Shown piece by piece: positions 1 through 64,000 of a DNA stretch of 64,000 nucleotides; the stretch's first letter is position 1; each line of letters begins with the position of its first letter. The notes beneath the pieces are model-generated. The model had not been told where the DNA came from. It saw only the letters and a list, made by a program, of their open reading frames with translations, and ran no database searches. Source of the DNA: Macrostomum lignano (Eukaryota); NCBI GenBank assembly GCA_002269645.1, contig NIVC01000416.1, positions 372,001 through 436,000 on the forward strand, in the 5' to 3' direction. The position numbers and the translations under genes are program-made.

Positions 1-584
1 GTGTGTCTGCCTGTCTGTCTGTCTGTCTGTCTGTCTGTCCTGTTAAAACGCAGAGCGGGCAGCCCCCAAGCCGGGCAGGCAGTGAGCGGGCAATCCGGCA
101 GAGGTCAAGCCAGTAAATCATCAACAGGCGATGCCGCCCAGCCGCAGCGGGAGCAGTGAAATGAGTCGCCCGCAATGCTTGGCTAGCAGAAATGAAATCA
201 GGAATGATCACAGTCCGGGCTGCAGTCAACACGGCAGTCGGTTTCCATCAGGAGGGCAGCCGGATGCCCGCGCAGACCCGCACATGACCTTCACGCACGG
301 GTGCCCAATTCAAAGTCCCTGTTCTGCTCCACCTCATCTGTGATGCTGAGGCGACCTGACGGAGTTACTGCATCAGTCAGTGTGCAGGCTCTCTGACTGT
401 CTGCCTCCCTTATTTTTATTCTATCTCTGTCCGCTCTCTGCCACCTGTCTTCAGGTCAAAAATCGGAACTTAAGCTACTTAGATAAAAATATATAAGAAA
501 ATATGACACTCTCATGGAATAGGAAAGATCAAGAAAGACTGCTGGTCTGTAATAGCGATAAGGGCGGTCATTAGGAAGATGCGA

Positions 585-48874: not shown

Positions 48875-50469
<1,595 letters not shown>

Positions 50470-53608: not shown

Positions 53609-55036
53609 ATGAAAATGGACGCACTTCATCAAGACAGCGTCACTCTAGTTGCTAGGCCAGATACTTCATCGCCCGCTGCACTTTATGAGTCGTCGAATTT
53701 CAACTGCAGCTGGAATTTACTAGCCAAACCCTGTTCCCGGAACAGTGAGCGGCAGTTGATCCTGATTGGGGATCCATCGAGTAAAGACGGCAATATGAAT
53801 GCGAGCCCAATGCGGTACCGGCTGAGTGAGTCCGAGTTTGCAGTGTACCCTGGCCTGATTCACGGAGTCACTCTGGGCGCCAAGTGAGTGCTGAAATATG
53901 CGGACTTAATAATGATAATAATACTAACGACCTTCATTTGATTCTTGACTTTTGAGCTCTCTATAAATCCTTAATAAAACGCAGGAAGTGTAATTGGAAG
54001 GGTCGCAACCGTAAGGAGCGCAAATTCTTGGTGTCTTGGTAGGCGCCCCTGTCTCTTGGTGGGCGCCCCTGTCTCTTGGTGGGCGCCCCTGTCTCTTGGT
54101 GGGCGCCCCTGTCTCTTGGTGGGCGCCCCTGACTCTTGGTGGGCGCCCCTGTCTCTTGGTGGGCGCCCCTGTCTCTTGGTGGGCGCCCCTGTCTCTTGAT
54201 GGGCGCCCCTGTCTTTTGGTGGGCGCCCCTGTCTCTTGGTAGGCGCCCCTGTCTCTTGGTGGGCGCCCCTGTCTCTTGGTGAGCGCCAATGTCTCTTGGT
54301 GGGCGCCCCTGTCTCTTGGTGGGCGCCCCTGTCTCTTGGTGGGCGCCACTGTCTCTTGGTGGGCGCCACTGTCTCTTGGTAGGCGCCCCTGTCTCTTGGT
54401 GGACGCCACACGAGCAATTTATTTGAACGTCAATCGCGCAAATCCTCATTGTTGTATTACAACCTGTACCGCTTCTCCCACACCCTGCAGCAGCTGCATC
54501 ATCAAGGTGTCGGCCCCCATAACCTCCCAGCATCCTGCCACCCCGGAGCCGCCCAGTCTCACAGCGGTGCTGCTTCATCCCGAGATCTGTGCCAGGGACT
54601 TTCTCCAGTTCAAGGGCGGCTGCTACACAGCCAGTCGAATCCGTCAGAGCTTCAAGGACTTCTCGAGCAGCATCCTGGGCTCTGCTCAGTTGGCCAGCTT
54701 CTCCAGCAAGGCTGAGATCAGCAGCTTCATCGAAGCGAGTGAGTCCACTCGAGACGAGATTGAGTATTGAGATTGAGTATACATTAGAGGAATTCAAGTA
54801 ACAGCATTAACTACATTCACTTGAGACGTCAATTAAGTATAAAAAATACTTGCTATTATCCCAGACCTGGTCCGAGCGCGGGTTCATCCGTACAGACCGC
54901 CTCTGGACCTGACACAGCCGACTCGAATCGCCGTGTTTTACAGACCCTCCGATCACAGCGTGCTTTCGCCTGCTTGGAATGAGACTCACTGCTCGCTGGA
55001 GCCAGTTGCTGAGCTGCAGAGCCTGGCAGATCATCT
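53609..55036 (+). CDS. Unidentified multi-exon host gene (3 linked exons, open 3' end)
   Basis: Exons 53609-53883, 54491-54738, 54865-55036; all donors gtgagt, phases 2/1/2 join in one frame (...YPGLIHGVTLGAN SCIIKVSAPI...SSFIEAN LVRARVHPYRPPLDLTQPTRIAVFYRPSD...). Start codon and family uncertain. Confidence 0.7.
54030..54402. repeat. 20-bp minisatellite (intron 1 of the unidentified gene)
   Basis: GTCTCTTGGTGGGCGCCCCT tandem. Confidence 0.95.
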
Positions 55037-55069
55037 GTGAGTATTTGGGATTCTATCTTTTGATAGTTG

Positions 55070-55290
55070 TTTGTGTGTCTTCTACCTGACTTGTTTGTGT
55101 GTCTTCTACCTGACTTGTTTGTGTGTCTTCTACCTGACTAGTTTGTGTGTTCTACCTGACTTGTTTGTGTGTCTTCTACCTGACTTGTTTGTGTGTCTTC
55201 TACCTGACTTGCTTGTGTGTCTTCTACCTGACTTGCTTGTGTGTCTTCTACCTGACTTGTTTGTGTGTCTTCTACCTGACTTGTTTGTGT
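55070..55290. repeat. 24-bp minisatellite (intron 3 of the unidentified gene)
   Basis: GTGTGTCTTCTACCTGACTTGTTT tandem. Confidence 0.93.
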
Positions 55291-55639
55291 GTCTTCTACT
55301 ATCTACTTCTACTATCTACTTCTACTATCTACTATCTAAAACTATCGAACATTCTTATATATGTTCGATATATAAGAACTACATATCGTGCAGATTGTTG
55401 TTGATTTTGGAGGTGAGGTGGGTGTCAGAGCCAATGCAAATTCAACGCCTATCTAAATACATTAGACCGATTCTAATTGGTCCAGAGTCATTATGTGAGA
55501 CATTTATGCTCTCATGTAAAATCTATACATGTAATCAGTGTACACTGTATCGTACAGAAGCGACGACCAGTACAATATAGTACGCATAATTAGCGCTTCA
55601 CCGTTGTTGTACGTAGAAACGCGCGCGCCCCCATCCCCA

Positions 55640-55900
55640 CACAATGCAGCATTGGTGTACGCAGAATTAACTGTCCATATTAACTGTCCATATACCAAAA
55701 ATTGGCAGAATTAGAGCGCCCACCCACCCCATAACTGTCCATATTATTACTTGTCCATATTTACTGTCCATCCCAAAATTGGTGTACGCGCAGAATTGTA
55801 GCGTCCGCCCACCCCATAACTGTCCATATTATTACTTGTCCATATTTACTGTCCATATATACACCCAAAATTGGTGTACGCACAGAATTGTCTGTGACCC
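55640..55900. repeat. Subterminal repeat array, probably within the Polinton TIR
   Basis: About 8 copies of TGTCCAT(AT), several AAAATTGG(TGTACGC), and a duplicated block starting CCCACCCCATAACTGTCCATATTATTAC. Confidence 0.65.
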
Positions 55901-56213
55901 CCACAAAATTGGCGGTCCCACGCGGAGGCATGATGAGTCAGTCAGCCAGTAAATCGCCGCTGTCCACCCCTCTGCCCTGCGCTGGCCGCTATAGCTACCT
56001 GCAGCAGTGTTACGCAACAACCCGGTCGAGCCACAATGCTAACTTTATAGCCAGACACGTCATCAAGGTCTGAAAACACAAACTTCTATGCATGAAATAT
56101 TCTCGTTTAACAAGATGCCAAACCAACTTTGTTCGGACAGCAAACTATAAATAAGAAAATTTGGATTCTCGGCCGTTTATCTAAATTCACCAAGTTCAAT
56201 TAACAACCCAATC

Positions 56214-56410
56214 ATGTGGAAAACGCAGTGTTTGACAAGCAATTTTTGGTTGCCAAAGCACAAGAGGATCAGACCGACAAAGCATGAACTGCCAAGAACT
56301 TTGAGCAAGGATTTCAACACACCTCCAACGCCAGCACCGAAAATAGGTACAAATCTCTTTTTTTTTCTGGAATCCTCGATAACGACAACACCGTAAAAAG
56401 CTCGTTAACA
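56214..56410 (+). pseudogene. Internally deleted copy of the adjacent Polinton accessory gene
   Basis: NFWLPKHKRIRPTKHELPRTLSKDFNTPPTPAP matches NFWLPKHKRNRPPKLELPATWSKDFSTPPTPAP at about 56930-57030; frameshifted. Confidence 0.6.
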
Positions 56411-56458
56411 TGTAATTAAAACAAAAACTTATTGAGACTCTCGGGTATATAAGCACCA
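56411..56458 (+). promoter_or_regulatory. Duplicated promoter block with TATA box, copy 1
   Basis: 48 bp identical to 57101-57148; TATATAAG at 56446-56453, upstream of ATG 56574. Confidence 0.65.
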
Positions 56459-56573
56459 ACCCGGGGCACCAAGCACCCGTACCTGCAAATTTTTCTCGGA
56501 TTCTCGGCAGTTTTTCAAGCTCGAATAACATCCCCACCACTAGTGCGAACAACGCAGCAGTGCTTGACAAGAA

Positions 56574-57107
56574 ATGAGCTGGATTTCCAGAGACTACCCC
56601 CTATTATCGAACGAGGAAAAAGACGAATACGAGGCCTTGAAAAAATCTGCTGACTGGTTGTGCATTTGCCACAGCAAACCGATTTCCGAGCGATTAGTCA
56701 CCTTCAATGCCAAGGTCGAGGAAATTGATCAAGGCCCCTACGACAGCCAAGACTACGCAGCAGCCAGGATAAATGAGCAACTACGGGACAAAATGAGATT
56801 CAAAGCTGATTTAGCACGAATGGAAGATTACTGGCTCCGATACTAAGTGAAGAGCATCGCCAAAAAATACGTTTTCGGAACCATCAAGATCTGTATAATC
56901 CGTCGTGGGAGGAGCAACAAAAGATTTGGAATTTTTGGCTGCCAAAGCACAAGAGGAACAGGCCGCCAAAGCTTGAACTACCAGCAACTTGGAGCAAGGA
57001 TTTCAGCACACCTCCAACGCCAGCACCCGAAAATAGGAACAAAAGGTTCATTTTTTCCGGAATCCTCGATAACGACAACTCTGTAAAAAGCTCGTTATCG
57101 TGTAATT
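56574..57107 (+). CDS. Polinton accessory protein of unknown function, probably split by a frameshift
   Basis: ORF 56574-56846 (90 aa); an overlapping ATG-less open frame 56810-57107 continues SEEHRQKIRFRNHQDLYNPSWEEQQKIWNFWLPK...SSLSC*. Confidence 0.55.
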
Positions 57108-57148
57108 AAAACAAAAACTTATTGAGACTCTCGGGTATATAAGCACCA
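57101..57148 (+). promoter_or_regulatory. Duplicated promoter block with TATA box, copy 2
   Basis: TATATAAG at 57136-57143, 69 bp upstream of ATG 57205. Confidence 0.65.
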
Positions 57149-57204
57149 GCCCGGAGCATCTGCAAGCGCCCGTACCTGCAAATTTTTCTAAACAGACAAG
57201 AGAC

Positions 57205-57915
57205 ATGGAGACAGTGCAAGACTTCAACTGCGTCAAGCGAGAGCTGCTGGCACTCAAACCGCGAGGTCCGAGCTTCAACGGGGTTGAAACGTTTGACATT
57301 GAATATGACGAACAGGGACCTCTCTACTTGGCCAATGCGGTCCCTGTTTTGATCGTCAAGGGCGTGCGTACTGACAACGAAGGTCGCGAATTCATCATCA
57401 TTGCACAAAAACACATTGAAAGCTGCATACCCTACACTTTCAACACTGTGGCGGAGCACCTTTCCAGCGAAAGTCTAGCTCTGCTGGGCTACAACCCAGC
57501 GTTTGGAGGTGACAGTGCAGCGTTTGGGCTGGCTCACGACTTTAAAATGTACGACCAAAACGGACTGCCTGTAGAGGATTACAAAAACAAGAGCGGCTAC
57601 TACAGGATTCTGTTTACTCTCGACACGGCCGTGATTCGAGACGCTGTTTTGACCGCAATGCCAAAAATTCAACAGCTACAGTTTGTCGAAGAAGCCAAAC
57701 AGGCATTCGATCGTTGCTATTGGACGCCACCTCCAAAAATCAAGGTAGGCGCCAAGAAAGTAAGCAAGAAAGCAAAGAAACCACCAAAGCTTGTCAAGGA
57801 GAAGCAGCCAAAGGTGCCTAAAAATCAGGCCAGAAAGCGACAGCATCAATCGAAACTAGTAGCAGCCAACGAATCAAAGAAGCGGTCGAAAGCCCCAAGA
57901 AGGATACGAAAGTAA
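57205..57915 (+). CDS. Putative OB-fold ssDNA-binding protein with Lys/Arg-rich C-terminal tail
   Basis: Intact 236-aa ORF; FKMYDQNGLPV...GYYRILFTLDTAVI...MPKIQQLQFVE resembles the C-terminal strands of T7 gp2.5-like/NCLDV SSBs (by eye). Confidence 0.55.
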   Translation: METVQDFNCVKRELLALKPRGPSFNGVETFDIEYDEQGPLYLANAVPVLIVKGVRTDNEGREFIIIAQKHIESCIPYTFNTVAEHLSSESLALLGYNPAFGGDSAAFGLAHDFKMYDQNGLPVEDYKNKSGYYRILFTLDTAVIRDAVLTAMPKIQQLQFVEEAKQAFDRCYWTPPPKIKVGAKKVSKKAKKPPKLVKEKQPKVPKNQARKRQHQSKLVAANESKKRSKAPRRIRK

Positions 57916-58413
57916 AAACTGCCGAAAAATCTACTTGCAGAACGTCGAGTGTGTGAACCGAGTGTTTTGCGCGAAATGGAGCCGCATGCCTGACTTGGAC
58001 TGGGCGAGCGCACGGACATTTCGCAGACCAAGAGCTCTTATCAATTTGCGAATAGGAAATGTACAATCAACTTTTTTCAGCGTTCTTTGTCTGCAATTGT
58101 ATTCGGTTGTCGCTCCATCAACCAAGTTTTGCGTCTTTTTCCTCAATGTAAACCAATTTCTGTTGTTGTTACCACTAGTACTTACCGCGCTGAAGTAGAC
58201 AGATGGCCAAACTTTTTCCAAATTGCATACTCCGGGTCCCGCTGGGTGAAGTGGGAGTGTGAAGTTTTCAATGGAATAGTAATAAAGTCTCCATTTCGCA
58301 ATGCTAAATGTTTATTATGCGGAAAGAATGGCCGCCTTGTTTTCCTTGGAATACGAAACTTTAAAGAGCTCTGTCAAATGTACGATCATGTGACTAGCGT
58401 TTTGCATGTCTAA
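57916..58413 (+). pseudogene. Divergent TATA-binding protein (TBP)-like gene with one in-frame TGA at 57991-57993
   Basis: Two TBP repeats: [18 protein letters not shown]...[25 protein letters not shown] and [53 protein letters not shown], compared with TBP [52 protein letters not shown]. Confidence 0.7.
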
Positions 58414-58553
58414 TCCATGTAGCTGTTGCGTAACTTTACTGCTTTACCACTGTACCGAATTTGTATGTACGTACAAGCTGCTATGAAATTGTCTATAAAT
58501 ATATTGTGCATAAATTGCAGTGCACTGCAACCAACATCTTTTTGCTAAACAAA

Positions 58554-58910
58554 ATGACAAACGGAATCTCCAGACTATGTTCTTGTCGCGGCGAGCTCGC
58601 AGAGCTCGCCAAAGCCCGTCCCGCTCTTCGGCGGGCCATTATTCGAGGTGCAGGCAAGGAACTGATTCATTGTCTCTGTGAATTGAGTCACAACGTGCTC
58701 CGGGGAAATATCGATCTTTCTCCGAAACAGTATCTGCGATTAAAGCGATACAGAAGATCGTTGCGTGAATTGGCAGACACAAAATTGTCTATAAATAGGA
58801 AGAAGAATATGCTTCTCTCGAATCCTCAAGTCGGTGGTTTTCTACCCATACTTGCATCTGTTGCTGCACCGCTAATATCAAGCCTGTTTGGCGGACTACT
58901 TGGTCGCTAA
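58554..58910 (+). CDS. Adintovirus GasderminX-like virion protein with C-terminal amphipathic helix
   Basis: LIHCLCELSHNVLRGNIDLSPKQYLRLKRYRRSLRELA...QVGGFLPILASVAAPLISSLFG is the conserved Polinton pattern; ATG 58554 follows TATAAATA at 58494. Confidence 0.8.
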   Translation: MTNGISRLCSCRGELAELAKARPALRRAIIRGAGKELIHCLCELSHNVLRGNIDLSPKQYLRLKRYRRSLRELADTKLSINRKKNMLLSNPQVGGFLPILASVAAPLISSLFGGLLGR

Positions 58911-58911
58911 A

Positions 58912-59562
58912 ATGAATAAATACGTTGTTGTACCAGAAGAAGAATTTAATAGACTAAGTCAAGGCGCACCCCGAGAAATTGCATCCAAAACAGAATATGA
59001 AAAACTCATTGAATACAACACTCAACTCCAAAATAAACTAAGTCAGATCAAGCAAAAGAAGAGTAATCGTTTTCCTGAACGACAACAACGTGTTTGGGAC
59101 ATGCTGACAGAAAGATACCCAAATTTGGAGTACAACAAGTCGTGGGAAATTGTATTTGATGGAAAAACCTGGCCAGGAAGCAATATTTTCGATCTATTGA
59201 AGGAGATTACATCGAATGAAAGGCGCGACCGCCCAAGCCCAAAATATAGTACCGCTTTTTGGGCCCTGGCCGAAGAGGCAGATATTGCAAAAGCTCTACT
59301 AGGACGACGCCAACAAGAAGAAGTCAGTGTGAAAAAAGAAGTCGGCACGGATCCGGATCGAGACGATTTTTTAGTCGAGCAAGCAATTGGAACTAATGAT
59401 TTCTACAACGACTTCCACAAAGACCAAGCCAGTGGCCTGAATGAAATTAAAAAATATGAAGATCGTGGCAGCAATGCCTACAGGCATGCTTCATACCAAC
59501 TTCGCGAACCAAAGAGGCGGCAGAAACCAGCAGTAAAATACGAGACGTTAAAAAAACTATAA
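58912..59562 (+). CDS. Conserved Polinton protein (GSNIxDL motif)
   Basis: 216 aa from ATG 58912; WEIVFDGKTWPGSNIFDLL matches the motif of the gene that usually follows the GasderminX-like gene. Confidence 0.7.
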   Translation: MNKYVVVPEEEFNRLSQGAPREIASKTEYEKLIEYNTQLQNKLSQIKQKKSNRFPERQQRVWDMLTERYPNLEYNKSWEIVFDGKTWPGSNIFDLLKEITSNERRDRPSPKYSTAFWALAEEADIAKALLGRRQQEEVSVKKEVGTDPDRDDFLVEQAIGTNDFYNDFHKDQASGLNEIKKYEDRGSNAYRHASYQLREPKRRQKPAVKYETLKKL

Positions 59563-59602
59563 ATAGAAATCATTTTCATGATTTATAATCTGTTTTTGGA
59601 TC

Positions 59603-59869
59603 ATGGGTGCCGCAGCTGTAACTTCAAAGCTTTGCTCAGACAAACCGTCTGTGGAGTTCAAGTGTAATTACTCATGCTGTGCATCGAATCTAGTTGCGAA
59701 TGAGGGTGAAAACCGCTCTTCGGAGAGTGTACGAACAGGGGGACGCCGCTTTTACAAATGCTGCCCGTGTATATCAGGAGGCCAAACGGCTGGTCCCCTC
59801 CCTGACGAGACGCCAAACAGACGAATGGCTGAAGACCCAATCGAGCTACACCCGGCACAAGAGGGTTAA
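59603..59869 (+). CDS. Possible small Cys-rich (MG...C...CxxSCC) protein overlapping the integrase start
   Basis: ATG 45 bp after TATAAATA at 59558; MGAAAVTSKLCSDKPSVEFKCNYSCC. Confidence 0.4.
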   Translation: MGAAAVTSKLCSDKPSVEFKCNYSCCASNLVANEGENRSSESVRTGGRRFYKCCPCISGGQTAGPLPDETPNRRMAEDPIELHPAQEG

Positions 59870-60767
59870 AAGAAAATTCCAAACCGGAAAAGTAATGTCA
59901 GGAGGCTTCATGGAAACTGTGCAAGCGGATTTGATGGACATGTCACGATACGAACAATGGAATGATGGTCATCGATATATTCTAGTTGCAATTGACGTGC
60001 TTAGTAAATTGGCTTTTTGTCAGTCAATAAAATTGAAAAGCGACACTCCAAAGGCTTTTGAAAGCATGATCAAAGACTTCCCCATTAAGCCTTTATATCT
60101 ACACGTTGATCGAGGTACCGAGTTTTATAACAATCGCATGCAGAACTTACTGAAAGCCCATAATATCAAAATGTACAGTACAAACTCTGTATACAAGGCA
60201 AATATGGCTGAAAGGCTGATTAGGACTCTCCGAAAACGTTTAGCTCGCTACTTTGAGCATAAAAACACGTGGCGTTGGATCGACTATTTGCCAATATTGG
60301 TTAAAAGTTACAACAACACAGTACACTCTACTATTGATATGAAACCTTCGAGTGTCGGTCTGCACAATCAAAAAGAATTGTGGGAAAAGCTCTACAAGGA
60401 TCCTGAATATGATGAACCAGTTTACCAAAAAGGGGACTTTGTCAGAATTTCAAAATCTCGTCGAGCCTTTGACAAGGAAGCATACGATATGTACAGCGAA
60501 GAAGTTTACGTTGTGTCTCAAGTATGCCCGGGACCGCCTCATTTTTATCGCATTTCCGACCTATCTGGAGAACAAATCGAGGGTCGATTCTACTATAATG
60601 AACTTTCAAAGACGGTTCGACCGGACCGCTTTGTTATAGACAAAATTCTGCGTCGCAATGTCATCATCAATGGTGTCGCTCATCATTTCGTTAGTTGGCG
60701 CGGCTATCCCGAGTCGTTCAATGCATTTGTACCAGTTGAGGAAGTTATAAATATAAGACAAGGATGA
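59700..60767 (+). CDS. Retroviral-type (rve) integrase with C-terminal chromodomain
   Basis: DDE motifs VQADLMDM, IDVLSK, LHVDRGTEF, KANMAERLIRTLR; chromodomain FVIDKIL...HFVSWRGYPESFNAFVP. First ATG is at 59700; the ORF track starts at TTG 59694. Confidence 0.95.
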   Translation: MRVKTALRRVYEQGDAAFTNAARVYQEAKRLVPSLTRRQTDEWLKTQSSYTRHKRVKRKFQTGKVMSGGFMETVQADLMDMSRYEQWNDGHRYILVAIDVLSKLAFCQSIKLKSDTPKAFESMIKDFPIKPLYLHVDRGTEFYNNRMQNLLKAHNIKMYSTNSVYKANMAERLIRTLRKRLARYFEHKNTWRWIDYLPILVKSYNNTVHSTIDMKPSSVGLHNQKELWEKLYKDPEYDEPVYQKGDFVRISKSRRAFDKEAYDMYSEEVYVVSQVCPGPPHFYRISDLSGEQIEGRFYYNELSKTVRPDRFVIDKILRRNVIINGVAHHFVSWRGYPESFNAFVPVEEVINIRQG

Positions 60768-60801
60768 ACACACATACACTCGAAACGTGTAGTATATTAC
60801 A

Positions 60802-61955
60802 ATGCATCTATTCCTACCTAGCAATGCGTGCGTTGAGCACTATCCTGAGAATAATTCGGCACATTATAGCATTAATTTGCCCGACACCCTCCACTTTCCG
60901 AATCATGAAGTCTGCATCGAACGGATCTACTTTTGTAAAGAATTCAAAACCGTCCCCGATAATCGAATGGTTGATGTCCTGACCAACGCTCCGAGGATGA
61001 AGTGATTGACATTGAGGTGAGAGAAAAACCCGCCTCCACGTATAAACAGTTTGCGTCGGTTTCTCTCGCCGCGGGGCTATCAACAGCCAACGAAGTGGTT
61101 GATGCAATCATCGCCGATCTAAAATATGAGCAAGACGATAATGCGATGATTTGCATTGAGCGTTCACAGGAAGGCCAAATTTCAATTGTGAACAAATCAT
61201 GGTATGGTGCGAACATTAGGCTGTCCAGTAATGTGCGTAGCATGTTTAAAAAGGTTGATGACGCTGGAAATAAATCAAATATCGAAGTAACGACTTTTTT
61301 ATTAAACCCAAGAAATTCGTTAGTATTCGCTATAGAATTGGAGTCCTCCTCCTCCATAGAGAGTCCGATGACTCTAACGTTTGAAAAGAGTGTCTGGCCT
61401 TCTAGAACGTCACTGCGGATTGCTAAAGGATTCTACCGCACGCCTGACGAGCTCTTAAATTATGTTAATGGAGCGCTTTGGAGCGTCGTTTCAAAGCTCC
61501 CAATAAGTCCAGCGACGAGAGTGGATGCATTCCACTACAACCCTTTTCTGAACCGGTGTGAGTACAAACCCATTGAAAACATTTTATTCGACATTGGAGA
61601 GCTTGCTGCCATTCTCGGCTTTCGCGAAGATGTTTTCAATGAAACTCCAAAGACCGCTAAACGACCAATCGATTTAACAAATGGTGTACAAACTATGTAC
61701 ATCTATTCAAATATTGTCGACTCTGCCATTGTTGGAGACGTCAAAGTCCCCCTGCTTGGGGCAATTCCTTTGAATGAAAAGGTATACGGCGAACGAGAGT
61801 ACTACGAGTTTGTCAATCCATCCTACTTACCGTTGGTGAAACACCCATTCAAAACCATTGAGGTGCAAATCTGTGACGATATGGGCAAGTTAATGGATCG
61901 GATTCTTCGAGGCAAAACTGTTTTATCGATCAACATTCGTGAAATTAAGCTATAA
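60802..61955 (+). pseudogene. Minor capsid protein (penton), split by a frameshift at about 60975-61002
   Basis: N-terminus MHLFLPSNACVEHYPENNSAHYSINLP (60802-61005) and C-terminus DLTNGVQTMYIYSNIVDSAIVGDVKVPLL...TIEVQICDDMG (61002-61955) are the two conserved ends of one penton but lie in different frames. Confidence 0.85.
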
Positions 61956-61998
61956 ATAAAGAAGTTTTCACGAATAAAGGTAGCAACTGATCGACAAT

Positions 61999-62367
61999 AT
62001 GCCTTCAATCTTGATCGGAGGAGCTTTACCGGTATTTTCCGGTGCACAGCGCGGCAACGGCCTGTTTGGCAGCATTGCCCGATTTGCCCTGCCAATTTTA
62101 AAGAGTTTTGGCAAAAATATTCTTCGCCACGGAACACGAGCCCTAGCTACAACAGTTAGCGACACACTCGATCAAGGCGGGAACTTGAAAGAAGCGGCAT
62201 TGCGTAACTCTGTCCAGGCAGCTAAAGATGCTTTCAAGGACACAGTCGCACAACGAGGTAGCGGCAGACAAAGACGAAGAAAGATGACTAACAAAAAAAC
62301 GAGAAAAAGACTGCAGCATTCTGATATTTTCGACTCTATAAATAAAAAAACCCGTGCCAATAACTGA
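61999..62367 (+). CDS. Basic core protein (pVII-like / 'Cupiennin'-type Polinton protein)
   Basis: QRGNGLFGSIARFALPILK...QRGSGRQRRRK...SDIF pattern; 122 aa. Confidence 0.8.
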   Translation: MPSILIGGALPVFSGAQRGNGLFGSIARFALPILKSFGKNILRHGTRALATTVSDTLDQGGNLKEAALRNSVQAAKDAFKDTVAQRGSGRQRRRKMTNKKTRKRLQHSDIFDSINKKTRANN

Positions 62368-62410: not shown

Positions 62411-63694
62411 ATGACTGAGTGCCTGTGTACAAAGTCGGAATTCGAGCTTTTTGCTCCTCGCGCACACCAAATTGCTGCAATTAGCGCCACCACTGAAGAA
62501 GTTCACCCTGTTGCCAGTGTTGAAAATGCCAGCGTGGTCGAATTTAGGATTGTTGGTGGTGAGACGTTTATCGATCTTAACGACATTGACCTCGAGATTA
62601 AGGCCCGCGTTAAGCAGTCTAATGGTACAAATCTTGCTGCTGATTCGAATGTTGCGCCGGTCAATTACGTCCTTGAAAGCATGTTTAAAAACGTCACGTT
62701 GACAATCAACGGGACACACGTAGAGTCGAGCAATAACAACCACGCTTACAAGGCCTATATTCTCACGTGTTTGAATTACGGACACGATTCAAAAACTAAT
62801 CAACTGAGAATGATGGGCTACGCAAAGGACGCTGGAGGTCAAATGGCTGTGGTTGGAAATCCTGGCTTTGTAGCCCGCAAGGCGATGGCGGCAAACTCAC
62901 GCACCTTTCACCTTTATGGACCTCTTAGTTTAGACTTTTTTGTTACCAACGACCGAATGCTACTGCCATACACTGATATGGTAATTACGCTGACCATGCA
63001 CAATTCCGGCTTCGTTCTGGAAAACCACGCGGACGGGGTTGATGCGCGGCTAGTACTCGAGAGTGCCAAACTACATGTGCGCCGCGTCAAGGCAAACCCC
63101 CAATTGGCATTGGAGATTGAAGAACAACTAGGCAAACAGAATGCAATCTATCCGATTGAGCGACTTGTTGTGCACAATACTTCAGTGGCTGGCGGTGTTC
63201 GGGACATGTCAATCAATAATATATTTCCTGAACAAAAGCCTAAACTAGTGGTTGTTGGCATGGTGAACAGCGGCGCATACAACGGTGTGGCTACACATAA
63301 CCCGTTTAATTTTGAACCGTTTGGTGCCGACAGTGTCGCTCTGTATAAGGACGGAGTCAGTCTGTGTGGACAACCGTTTACTCCTCGATTCGGTGTTCAT
63401 AACTATGCTCGCGAGTATGCCATGCTACTAAAAAGCCTAGGAAAGATGAATCGGGACCTGGATATTGACGTATCATATTCCGACTATGGAGCTGGCTACT
63501 GCTTCTTCGCCTGGAATCTCATGCCCGACATGGAGCTGGGCGGGCATAGCATGCCTCGCGAGCGAGGGAATCTGACGCTACAAATAAAGTTTTCTGCTGC
63601 CTTGGCCGCAGGAATCAACGTGTTGGTGTTTGGCTACTTTGACAATACTGTGCAAATCACTCGCGGTCATCAGGTTATTCTAGACTGCGTGTAG
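62411..63694 (+). CDS. Major capsid protein (double jelly-roll, hexon-like)
   Basis: Intact 427 aa; CTKSEFELF, FIDLNDIDL, NNHAYKAYILTCLNYG, PFNFEPF, YGAGYCFFAWNLMPD, GNLTLQIKFSAAL. Confidence 0.93.
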   Translation: MTECLCTKSEFELFAPRAHQIAAISATTEEVHPVASVENASVVEFRIVGGETFIDLNDIDLEIKARVKQSNGTNLAADSNVAPVNYVLESMFKNVTLTINGTHVESSNNNHAYKAYILTCLNYGHDSKTNQLRMMGYAKDAGGQMAVVGNPGFVARKAMAANSRTFHLYGPLSLDFFVTNDRMLLPYTDMVITLTMHNSGFVLENHADGVDARLVLESAKLHVRRVKANPQLALEIEEQLGKQNAIYPIERLVVHNTSVAGGVRDMSINNIFPEQKPKLVVVGMVNSGAYNGVATHNPFNFEPFGADSVALYKDGVSLCGQPFTPRFGVHNYAREYAMLLKSLGKMNRDLDIDVSYSDYGAGYCFFAWNLMPDMELGGHSMPRERGNLTLQIKFSAALAAGINVLVFGYFDNTVQITRGHQVILDCV

Positions 63695-63744: not shown

Positions 63745-64000
63745 ATGAATAGTCTAGATATATTAGAACGTCTAATACTACCTGTCCCTGTTTGAGTAAC
63801 ACCAGTTGACAGGATTCCGCAGCCTGTTTATCCTGCTGCATACGTGATTAACTTTGACACTGGCAATCTACCAGGCACTCACTGGGCTTTAATTTGTCTT
63901 CATGCCGATGAGAGCGTGACATTTTTTGACCCCTTGTGTATCGATCCTGTGCCAGATTTATTAAAGTTGTGGATCACAAAGTATGTCCCTGTGGAGGTGG
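63745..64000 (+). pseudogene. Adenain-like cysteine protease, 5' part, with in-frame TGA at 63793-63795
   Basis: MNSLDILERLILPVPV*VTPVDRIPQPVYPAAYVINFDTGNLPGTHWALICLHADESVTFFDPL; catalytic His (GTHW) and FFDP present; runs off the window. Confidence 0.85.

Follow-up and report, generated by a model that had tools for sequence, protein, structure and literature searches.

A putative TATA-like late promoter word and a TBP-fold gene in a Polinton-like provirus of Macrostomum lignano

The window analysed (64,000 nucleotides of a Macrostomum lignano contig) carries a Polinton-like provirus of 10,219 bp with an integrase, a capsid module and a TBP-fold gene. All features given below with coordinates lie on the + strand. 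The left terminal inverted repeat (55378..55962, 587 bp) is 98.6% identical to the right repeat, which is located downstream of the window end together with the ATPase gene and a variant box, TACAAATA. A target-site duplication is absent at this copy; a 6 bp duplication flanks copies C1070 and C181. No match to protein-primed DNA polymerase B was found between the repeats of the three copies checked (two from family A, that of the window, and one from the sister family B, which is ~70% identical), and inspection of the ORFs revealed no large frame in the element. The terminal sequence starts with ACTAC in families A and B and with AGTAGT in clade D. Polymerase-only elements of 9 kb, integrated separately, have ends that match those of the window's element.

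The RVE integrase (59700..60767) was assigned using PF00665 (34.5 bits against a cut-off of 32.6), with a weak chromodomain match. Downstream lie a putative minor capsid gene (60802-61955; this copy has a frameshift), a gene for a putative major capsid protein of 427 aa (62411..63694) with 27-33% identity to its counterpart in polymerase-bearing Polintons of the same genome, and the 5' part of a putative protease gene (63747..64000). Taken together, the putative capsid, protease and ATPase proteins are 25-36% identical to the matching genes of those elements. Pfam, PHROG and PDB searches gave no capsid match for the putative capsid proteins, family and fold searches with the putative major capsid protein were without match and a Pfam A32 profile search of the genome found nothing. 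One query sequence proved to be a LINE insertion and was set aside. The capsid, protease and ATPase labels are our own assumption from general background, in the case of the capsid also from synteny.

At the left end, a gene of no assigned function (56574..57097) is split into two frames here and forms a single 171-aa ORF in family B. It is followed by TATATAAG (57136..57143), a putative early promoter located 69 nt before the ATG of a 236-aa ORF (57205..57915) and kept in family B. The 236-aa ORF is conserved as far as Ile-Lys-Val at residues 179-181, invariant in 7/7 homologues, where conservation stops and a splice donor is predicted (57745). Searches of the PDB, Pfam and PHROG gave no match to it, and its profile showed no significant similarity to those of the upstream ORFs of clade C. 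An ssDNA-binding identity, which had been an impression only, was dropped (model pLDDT 45, searches null). The preliminary description placed TATATAAG before two genes, and both boxes are present. Their independence fails: the box at 56446 lies in a duplicate of roughly 260 bp (56241..56496; 88-90% identity to 56930-57189) and is the copy of that at 57136, and family B has only one. The early promoter class of the window's element is thus one promoter, not two, although TATATAAG recurs ahead of left-end genes in several lineages. The same duplicate carries most of the spurious ORF at 56214; this ATG, previously listed as a gene start, lies at the edge of the duplicate, and the ORF resembles the 3' end of the 56574 gene.

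The TBP-like exon (57941..58413) starts at a predicted splice acceptor, has no box upstream and is frameshifted here; many other copies keep all 142 aa in an open frame. The model (pLDDT 83), biased by the inclusion of host TBP in the folding alignment, has a two-repeat saddle fold; at E<=0.001, 44/44 Foldseek matches belong to the TBP block, and all matches listed are TBP. The protein itself (P0001) has no Pfam TBP match; the PF00352 cut-off is passed by its homologue P0002 (64% identical) and by P0005 from clade C, for which a homologue search gave none. Homologues P0002, P0003 and P0006-P0011 were available as protein only, without DNA context. A further candidate, P0004, was discarded as a repetitive false match. 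Identity to the canonical TBP encoded by the host genome is ~20%, and several positions that we take to be DNA contacts are altered lineage-specifically. Glu-x-Phe is invariant in the second stirrup. TBP bends DNA using intercalating Phe residues; of the four, located by reference to the host TBP row, the third alone is invariant, and families A and B have other residues at the first and fourth, so that DNA binding by the TBP-like protein is uncertain. The A/B protein is the most diverged of the set, with no Pfam match and changed Phe positions.

Splicing is predicted to link this exon to the TATATAAG-driven gene, with a candidate joint 57745 -> 57941. In clade C the upstream ORF has its sole phase-0 GT[AG]AG at an invariant motif in 5/5 copies, and the acceptor is in frame in 4/5, the candidate in C3758 being out of frame. 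A homologue fusing the upstream ORF to the TBP-like domain was absent among six database matches, all of which are unspliced gene calls. Among 24 listed runs, 14 were guessed to be RNA and contain the stretch, all as contigs; the four contig sets that were aligned span the element with no joint at the predicted intron, and contigs cannot show transcript starts. Trans-splicing or a frameshift was considered as the source of the start of the TBP-like protein; given the conserved cis donors, cis-splicing is the simpler of these possibilities. The clade D TBP-like gene starts at an ATG of its own with the late word upstream, an arrangement that does not fit a purely early TBP-like gene.

Seven copies of TATAAATA had been described on the coding strand of the element (56146, 58494, 58790, 59558, 60746, 61951 and 62337), with distances of 68, 60, 122, 45, 56, 48 and 74 nt to the following ATG; positions and spacings were confirmed. 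Box 1 (56146..56153) is an orphan: the window's family has lost a Fic gene, and the box sits where the end of that gene remains; in family B the Fic gene is still present and the counterpart of box 1 contains its stop codon. Box 2 (58494..58501) precedes a 118-aa ORF (start 58554), within which box 3 (58790..58797) lies ahead of a 216-aa ORF (start 58912). Box 4 (59558..59565) covers the stop of the latter and precedes an 88-aa ORF (start 59603) and the integrase; it is not directly ahead of the integrase, which sits behind the 88-aa ORF. Box 5 (60746..60753) is located within the integrase 3' end, ahead of the putative minor capsid gene, box 6 (61951..61958) over the stop of that gene, ahead of a 122-aa ORF (start 61999), and box 7 (62337..62344) within this ORF, ahead of the putative major capsid gene. 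The finer details also held: a C directly before 6/7 boxes, a common AAATTGTC context ahead of both 58494 and 58790 (lost in family B), stop codons within the boxes at 59558 and 61951, and AATAAA overlaps at 61955 and 62341. The wording that a box precedes almost every gene was too strong, the exact box being the nearest upstream element for 6/12 genes. It is not directly ahead of the 56574 gene, the 57205 gene, the TBP-like exon, the protease or the ATPase. For the ATPase, TACAAATA, just outside the window and 49 nt before the Met common to family B, is a probable eighth box and is retained in family B too.

Over the whole window TATAAATA was matched 10 times against 2.8 expected. The 9048 bases that separate the terminal repeats contain seven matches on the + strand and none on the - strand. 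The proposed enrichment check was run with shuffled synonymous codons and shuffled non-coding dinucleotides (2000 replicates); the null mean was 0.21, the maximum was 3 and 0/2000 replicates reached seven. All seven TATAAATA boxes, and TATATAAG, match the cellular consensus TATA(T/A)A(A/T)(A/G) (PMC2396422; cited here, like the papers below, from its available part), so that host TBP could read TATAAATA; TACAAATA and the words of clades C and D fall outside it. Non-start ATGs downstream of the boxes number 17 per 836 nt at +9..27, 11 per 440 nt at +28..37 and 3 per 1601 nt from +38 to the start codon, in an indirect test covering 44/53 boxes that excludes in-frame ATGs by construction, with six starts set by hand and two boxes (first ATG at +10 and +22) dropped. 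The depletion boundary near +37 fits transcription starting downstream of the box and not inside it. No initiator consensus stands out at +25..35. We consider it very probable that the boxes are promoters of some kind. A reading of CTATAAATAR as a MEF2 site was rejected, since C precedes only 4/7 boxes in family B and the words of clades C and D are incompatible with it.

Twelve cassettes from one host genome were compared (A, B, five of clade C and five of clade D). Family B keeps 6/6 cassette boxes, against 608 identical 8-mers out of 6388 in the A/B alignment; at box 4 the word is kept though the homologous frame reads through it differently. TATAAATA occurs six times in each of the A and B cassettes and zero times on the coding strand of the other ten. 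TATAAG[CT]A (representative TATAAGCA) occurs 3-5 times per cassette in 5/5 of clade C, and [CT]TTAAGAA (representative CTTAAGAA) seven times per cassette in 5/5 of clade D. All three words fit NNTAANNA in register. A TBP-like gene is present in each of the three lineages with a private word (A/B, C and D), and a TBP-like tree of 12 rows groups by lineage. Clades E (one copy) and F (three partial copies) have no detected TBP-like gene and no common word 40-60 nt upstream; each clade F element contains 1-4 + strand copies of TATAAATA in AT-rich DNA, and at the 15 starts inspected no copy lies 40-60 nt ahead. The coupling of word and gene had been declared refutable by equal motif density in Polintons lacking a TBP-like gene; the two such lineages here have no such word, and the coupling was not refuted. 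Within the limits of three TBP-positive and two TBP-negative lineages of a single genome, in which relatives share traits, the comparison supports two promoter classes and a link to the TBP-like gene; what does not stand is the basing of the early class on two boxes. The pairing of an own TBP-like protein with a private word suggests that these elements may carry their own late-gene switch. Related loci outside the host were not found among viral and metagenome contigs.

The labels 'early' and 'late' are drawn from gene type, not timing. In the proposed switch, the boxes would be TATA-position core promoters of the virion and integration genes used by host RNA polymerase II. An early transcript would begin at TATATAAG (57136) via host TBP; unspliced, it would yield the 236-aa protein, and the spliced form would add the TBP-like domain. 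The resulting TBP mimic would bind the lineage word (here TATAAATA, with its variant TACAAATA) and activate the capsid, integrase and packaging genes, late transcripts starting ~28-38 nt past the first T of the word. Promoter activity, timing, splicing and binding are what we infer from the sequence comparisons. That the late promoters are read by an element-encoded TBP mimic appears to us moderately probable.

In another account host TBP reads the boxes as ordinary TATA boxes, and the TBP-like protein is a decoy for NC2, Mot1 or TAF1, acts in shutting off the host or in replication, or is confined in its reading to the non-canonical words that other lineages have. The match of both TATAAATA and TATATAAG to the cellular consensus (PMC2396422), the canonical host TBP and the divergence of the A/B protein (no Pfam match, altered Phe) all speak for it. 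However, host TBP tolerates many sequences and a single exact 8-mer is used 6-7 times; retention of TACAAATA before the ATPase in both families is left unexplained, sister lineages in the same host place out-of-consensus words at equivalent sites, and TBP-less lineages use no word. We regard this account as unlikely. Much less credible still is a virophage-like account, in which each lineage would have its own large DNA virus as helper and the words would be late promoters of those viruses. TAAG is present in the words of clades C and D and TAAAT in the window's word, sequences that resemble baculovirus and poxvirus late starts, and the element lacks a polymerase; mavirus-like types in one host also differ in motif, which was taken as matching different giant viruses (PMC8547959). 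Yet non-start ATGs are tolerated to +37 and scarce beyond, which speaks against transcription beginning within the word, splice sites of the spliceosomal type imply Pol II in the nucleus, the words go together with the TBP-like gene of the element itself, and the polymerase-only elements with matching ends would be a nearer helper.

We give scarcely any credence to the word serving chiefly to mark 3' ends or stop codons (TAA together with AATAAA), or to its arising as a side effect of Ile-Asn codons. Stop codons do fall in 2/7 boxes and AATAAA overlaps in 2/7 (4/7 in family B), and three boxes read as ATA AAT codons, but 0/2000 codon-preserving replicates reached the observed count, the C and D words at equivalent places are unable to form AATAAA, and the AATAAA at 62341 precedes the stop of the gene to be ended. 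Moreover, A occupies positions 9 and 10 after the word in 30/46 boxes across lineages, so the AATAAA overlap may be incidental. At 61951 the word may have a dual promoter and 3'-end role.

The favoured reading, an element-encoded TBP mimic acting at late promoters, resembles herpesvirus late transcription in its workings only and not by membership. KSHV ORF24 is a TBP mimic, and the late promoters of beta- and gamma-herpesviruses carry TATTWAA (PMC12529657). Both have a viral TBP-fold protein, place a short TATA-like word ahead of virion genes and a conventional TATA ahead of early genes, and use host Pol II, the last inferred for the Polinton element. A Pol II-binding N-terminal domain is a further feature of the herpesviral late pre-initiation complex. 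ORF24 is one of six viral activators (PMC12529657), whereas the 10 kb element has a single small TBP core, to which splicing probably joins an unrelated N-terminal domain; the window element's word is also canonical, and the departure from canonical TATA holds for clades C and D. With cellular TBP and TATA (PF00352) the system shares the predicted two-repeat saddle fold and a word that fits TATAWAWR. Virophages as well as Polinton-like viruses (PLVs) have promoter motifs in common with a giant virus (mavirus TCTA, PMC8547959; PgVV, 10.1101/2022.07.28.501842) and, as here, the upstream motifs of endogenous Polinton-like elements within one host differ by type, but there the reader is that of the helper virus; here each TBP-positive lineage has its own candidate reader and Pol II-like geometry.

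As in Polintons, Mavericks and adintoviruses (PMC8502044, PMC8097293), the element has an RVE integrase, terminal inverted repeats and, in other copies, 6 bp duplications, and its putative capsid, protease and ATPase genes are homologous to those of polymerase-bearing Polintons of the same genome. Unlike them, it is without pPolB and is ~10 kb long rather than ~17 kb. Its ends read ACTAC against AGTAGT, and the vertebrate Maverick end motif, (AGT)2 or (AG)3, is not found; vertebrate Mavericks are reported to be intronless (PMC8502044, PMC8097293), whereas this element has a predicted intron and a TBP-like gene. In the available text of PMC8502044 and the preprint, TBP occurs only in figure legends on non-animal datasets and promoters are not mentioned. 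No report of Polintons pairing their own TBP-like gene with a promoter word was found in the literature searched. A two-segment Polinton is suggested by the matching ends of the polymerase-only elements. A wider proposal, which we hold only tentatively, is that animal Polintons have a minimal herpesvirus-like early-to-late switch with a spliced TBP mimic, a lineage-private word and no cross-activation, and that the window's family (integrase, capsid and switch) is one half of a two-segment Polinton to which the 9 kb elements would give the DNA polymerase.

The timing of Polinton virion genes is unexplained in the literature searched, and animal Maverick virions were unobserved as of PMC8097293 in its available part. 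If the proposed reading is true, a switch of one protein and one word would give access to the timing of particle formation by these elements, and TBP mimicry would reach integrating elements of 10-20 kb, beyond the large herpesviruses and cytoplasmic DNA viruses. A single genome offers, in its three natural pairs of protein and word and its two controls, a system for studying how the DNA specificity of a TBP fold changes.

Seven exact copies of TATAAATA, the putative late-gene box word of the window's element, were found at 56146, 58494, 58790, 59558, 60746, 61951 and 62337, every one on the coding strand, where the preliminary description had placed them. The region between the terminal repeats was shuffled with proteins, codon usage and non-coding dinucleotides preserved; the null mean was 0.21 copies and seven were reached in 0 of 2000 rounds, confirming the enrichment. 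The spacing of 45–122 bp to the ATGs named there, the stop codons within the boxes at 59558 and 61951 and the AATAAA overlap at 61951 and 62337 were all confirmed in the sequence. The claim that a box precedes almost every gene does not hold as worded, the exact word heading six of 12 genes. The ATG at 56214 had been read as a gene start; the ORF there is a duplicated fragment, and the box at 56146, at the remnant end of what was a Fic gene, is therefore an orphan. Two boxes of TATATAAG, the putative early, left-end word, had been assigned to separate genes and are one promoter and its duplicate copy. A Fic-domain gene (PF02661) and a 117-aa ORF are present in the sister family B (L018, 5918–6697, minus strand) and were lost from family A, that of the window's element.

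The late cassette (virion and integration genes) is 70% identical between families A and B, with an exact match in 608 of 6388 aligned 8-mers. The boxes are identical in six of six cases, though their flanks match at just 24–47 of 60 positions, and a variant box, TACAAATA, is retained in both families about 49 nt upstream of the ATPase gene. At 59558 (box 4) the homologous frame in B crosses the word in a different phase, so that by our reading of the A/B alignment the stop codon does not account for the word. The first ATG downstream of box 4 belongs not to the integrase but to a Cys-rich 88-aa ORF (59603–59869) with a Met-Gly start, which overlaps the 5′ end of the integrase gene and shares 63% identity with its family B counterpart.

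The gene start lies 40–166 nt past the first T of the word at 44 of 53 boxes, nine boxes having been dropped from the set and six starts placed by hand. Non-start ATGs occur at 2.0–2.5 per 100 nt through +37 and at 0.19 per 100 nt after it (background 1.86); the test is partly circular, as it leaves out in-frame ATGs and also two boxes whose starts are at +10 and +22, and the drop exceeds what this circularity explains. A putative transcription start near +30 fits the ATG pattern better than one within the word.

Other Polinton lineages were found by searching the genome with capsid, TBP and polymerase queries. Clades C and D, both with a polymerase and a TBP-like gene, carry TATAAG[CT]A and [CT]TTAAGAA, respectively, upstream of their virion genes. 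Among the 12 cassettes compared, TATAAATA occurs on the coding strand six times in A, six times in B and not at all in the ten others; the lineage words are almost exclusive, the D word alone having stray off-diagonal counts, two in all. The three words have T3, A4, A5 and A8 in common. TATATAAG stands upstream of the left-end gene in A, B, seven of nine D copies and two of six C copies, this gene being PC4-like in the D copies. No TBP-like gene was matched in clade E (one copy, among at least 117 integrase matches) or clade F (three partial copies), and their AT-rich leaders have no common word. The preliminary description had proposed that the same motif in Polintons lacking a TBP-like gene would speak against a link between the two; across these five lineages of one genome the link is not refuted. 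The leaders of E (L081, L079) and F (L097–L098) are very A/T-rich, with A-runs that end directly at the ATG. Such leaders are reminiscent of cytoplasmic DNA virus promoters.

The window's element spans 55378 to 1.6 kb past the window end (10 219 bp, 587-bp inverted repeats) and encodes an RVE integrase. Its putative minor capsid, major capsid, protease and ATPase genes have homologues in polymerase-bearing Polintons of the same genome; the capsid labels are our assumption, in part from synteny, and no family-level match was found for the putative capsid proteins. DNA polymerase is absent between the terminal repeats in three of three copies tested, so that a defining Polinton feature is missing, though the element works like a Polinton. 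A capsid-gene DNA search gave at least 41 matches: at least 28 at 96–100% (family A), at least ten at 79% (family B) and at least three, from two intermediate copies, at 91–95%. Capsid-protein scores are identical in twelve family B copies (L003–L005 and L016–L018 among the loci). The sequences suggest that family B spread very recently, despite having no polymerase.

At the window's copy a target-site duplication is absent (55372–55377), and an 843-bp host stretch on its left (about 54461–55299) recurs at 97% about 1.7 kb to its right; a rearrangement or an assembly join is possible. Short tandem repeat arrays lie at 54040–54410 and 55075–55340, the latter stopping about 40 bp short of the left end. 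A two-exon host gene (48890–50469), which we take to resemble GOLPH3, lies 5 kb to the left.

The TBP-like gene (exon 57941–58413, plus strand) is frameshifted in the window's copy and open in many others. A Pfam search with its protein, P0001, gave no match; a 64%-identical homologue exceeds the Pfam TBP cut-off. The predicted structure (pLDDT 83, from an alignment that contained the host TBP) has TBP structures as its Foldseek matches at E ≤ 0.001. No ATG was found for the frame in family B. Conservation of the upstream 236-aa ORF (57205–57915, plus strand) stops at Ile-Lys-Val, invariant in seven of seven homologues, where the A and B DNA reads as a splice donor (57745), with a predicted in-phase acceptor at 57941. 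Clade C independently has the same layout, with one phase-0 donor in five of five upstream ORFs and a pyrimidine-rich acceptor, in frame in four of five. From these sites we infer a spliced fusion of the N-terminal part of the 236-aa ORF and the TBP-like exon, expressed from the TATATAAG promoter; the joint 57745–57941 was not seen in four contig sets, which may be DNA. The Pfam TBP profile has 150 matches in the genome, among them the host TBP and a TBP-related gene of 397 aa; all ten multi-copy match groups sampled lie in Polintons of clade D, with one of the ten represented by a fragment. In clade C copies C362, C273 and C1391 (L055, L040 and L042) the TBP-like frame runs on into a further domain, presumably nucleoside-kinase-like, which is a separate ORF in other clade C copies.

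Three elements, 9.0, 9.5 and 15.1 kb long, the longest of which holds a LINE insertion, match the polymerase (L087–L092; C173, C1945 and C558 in the host genome) and gave no match to any integrase, capsid or TBP query. Their ends were compared with window positions 55378–55427: over 32 nt, C1945 agrees with A at 24–29 positions and C558 with B at 27, and comparison of the A/B/polymerase-only group with clades D and E gives no more than 13. TATAAATA occurs 0, 0 and 1 times in the three polymerase-only elements. The simplest reading of these sequences is that the polymerase-only elements and families A and B would be mutually dependent; a two-segment Polinton is possible.

The words, their placement, conservation and privacy to lineages, the TBP fold and the splice-like sites belong to the sequences themselves, and the TATAAATA boxes are a conserved, real promoter-like system with a putative TBP-like reader. 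An early TATATAAG transcript would be driven by the host TBP, and the spliced TBP mimic would then turn on the late word using host Pol II, a scheme modelled on the herpesviral arrangement as described in part of PMC12529657. It is rather unlikely that the host TBP is the sole reader of the boxes; in its favour, TATAAATA is a canonical TATA box by the portion of PMC2396422 available, which is the main weakness of the mimic model and specific to the window's element, whose TBP-like protein has also lost some Phe positions. A reader supplied by a helper virus, as argued for mavirus-like elements in the available text of PMC8547959, is very unlikely here; a motif common to element and helper is described in the accessible part of 10.1101/2022.07.28.501842.

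Among the papers listed by literature searches, none was found to report promoter words of Polintons, a TBP switch in these elements or a Polinton in segments. A term search of the text available for PMC11296320, 10.1101/2023.08.22.554363, PMC11161782, 10.64898/2026.10.13.758929, PMC11131425, PMC9952930 and 10.64898/2026.06.19.733378 gave no TATA or promoter passage. The accessible text of PMC8097293 has no TATA, names promoters for host genes only and describes the genes as intronless. In the available text of PMC8502044 and 10.1101/697771, TBP is named solely in legends to figures of the section on non-animal data; TBP genes of animal elements could be labelled in the supplementary maps of adintoviruses. 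The box/TBP-like system, with its proposed spliced mimic and late word, would be a variant, itself new, of a known viral strategy.
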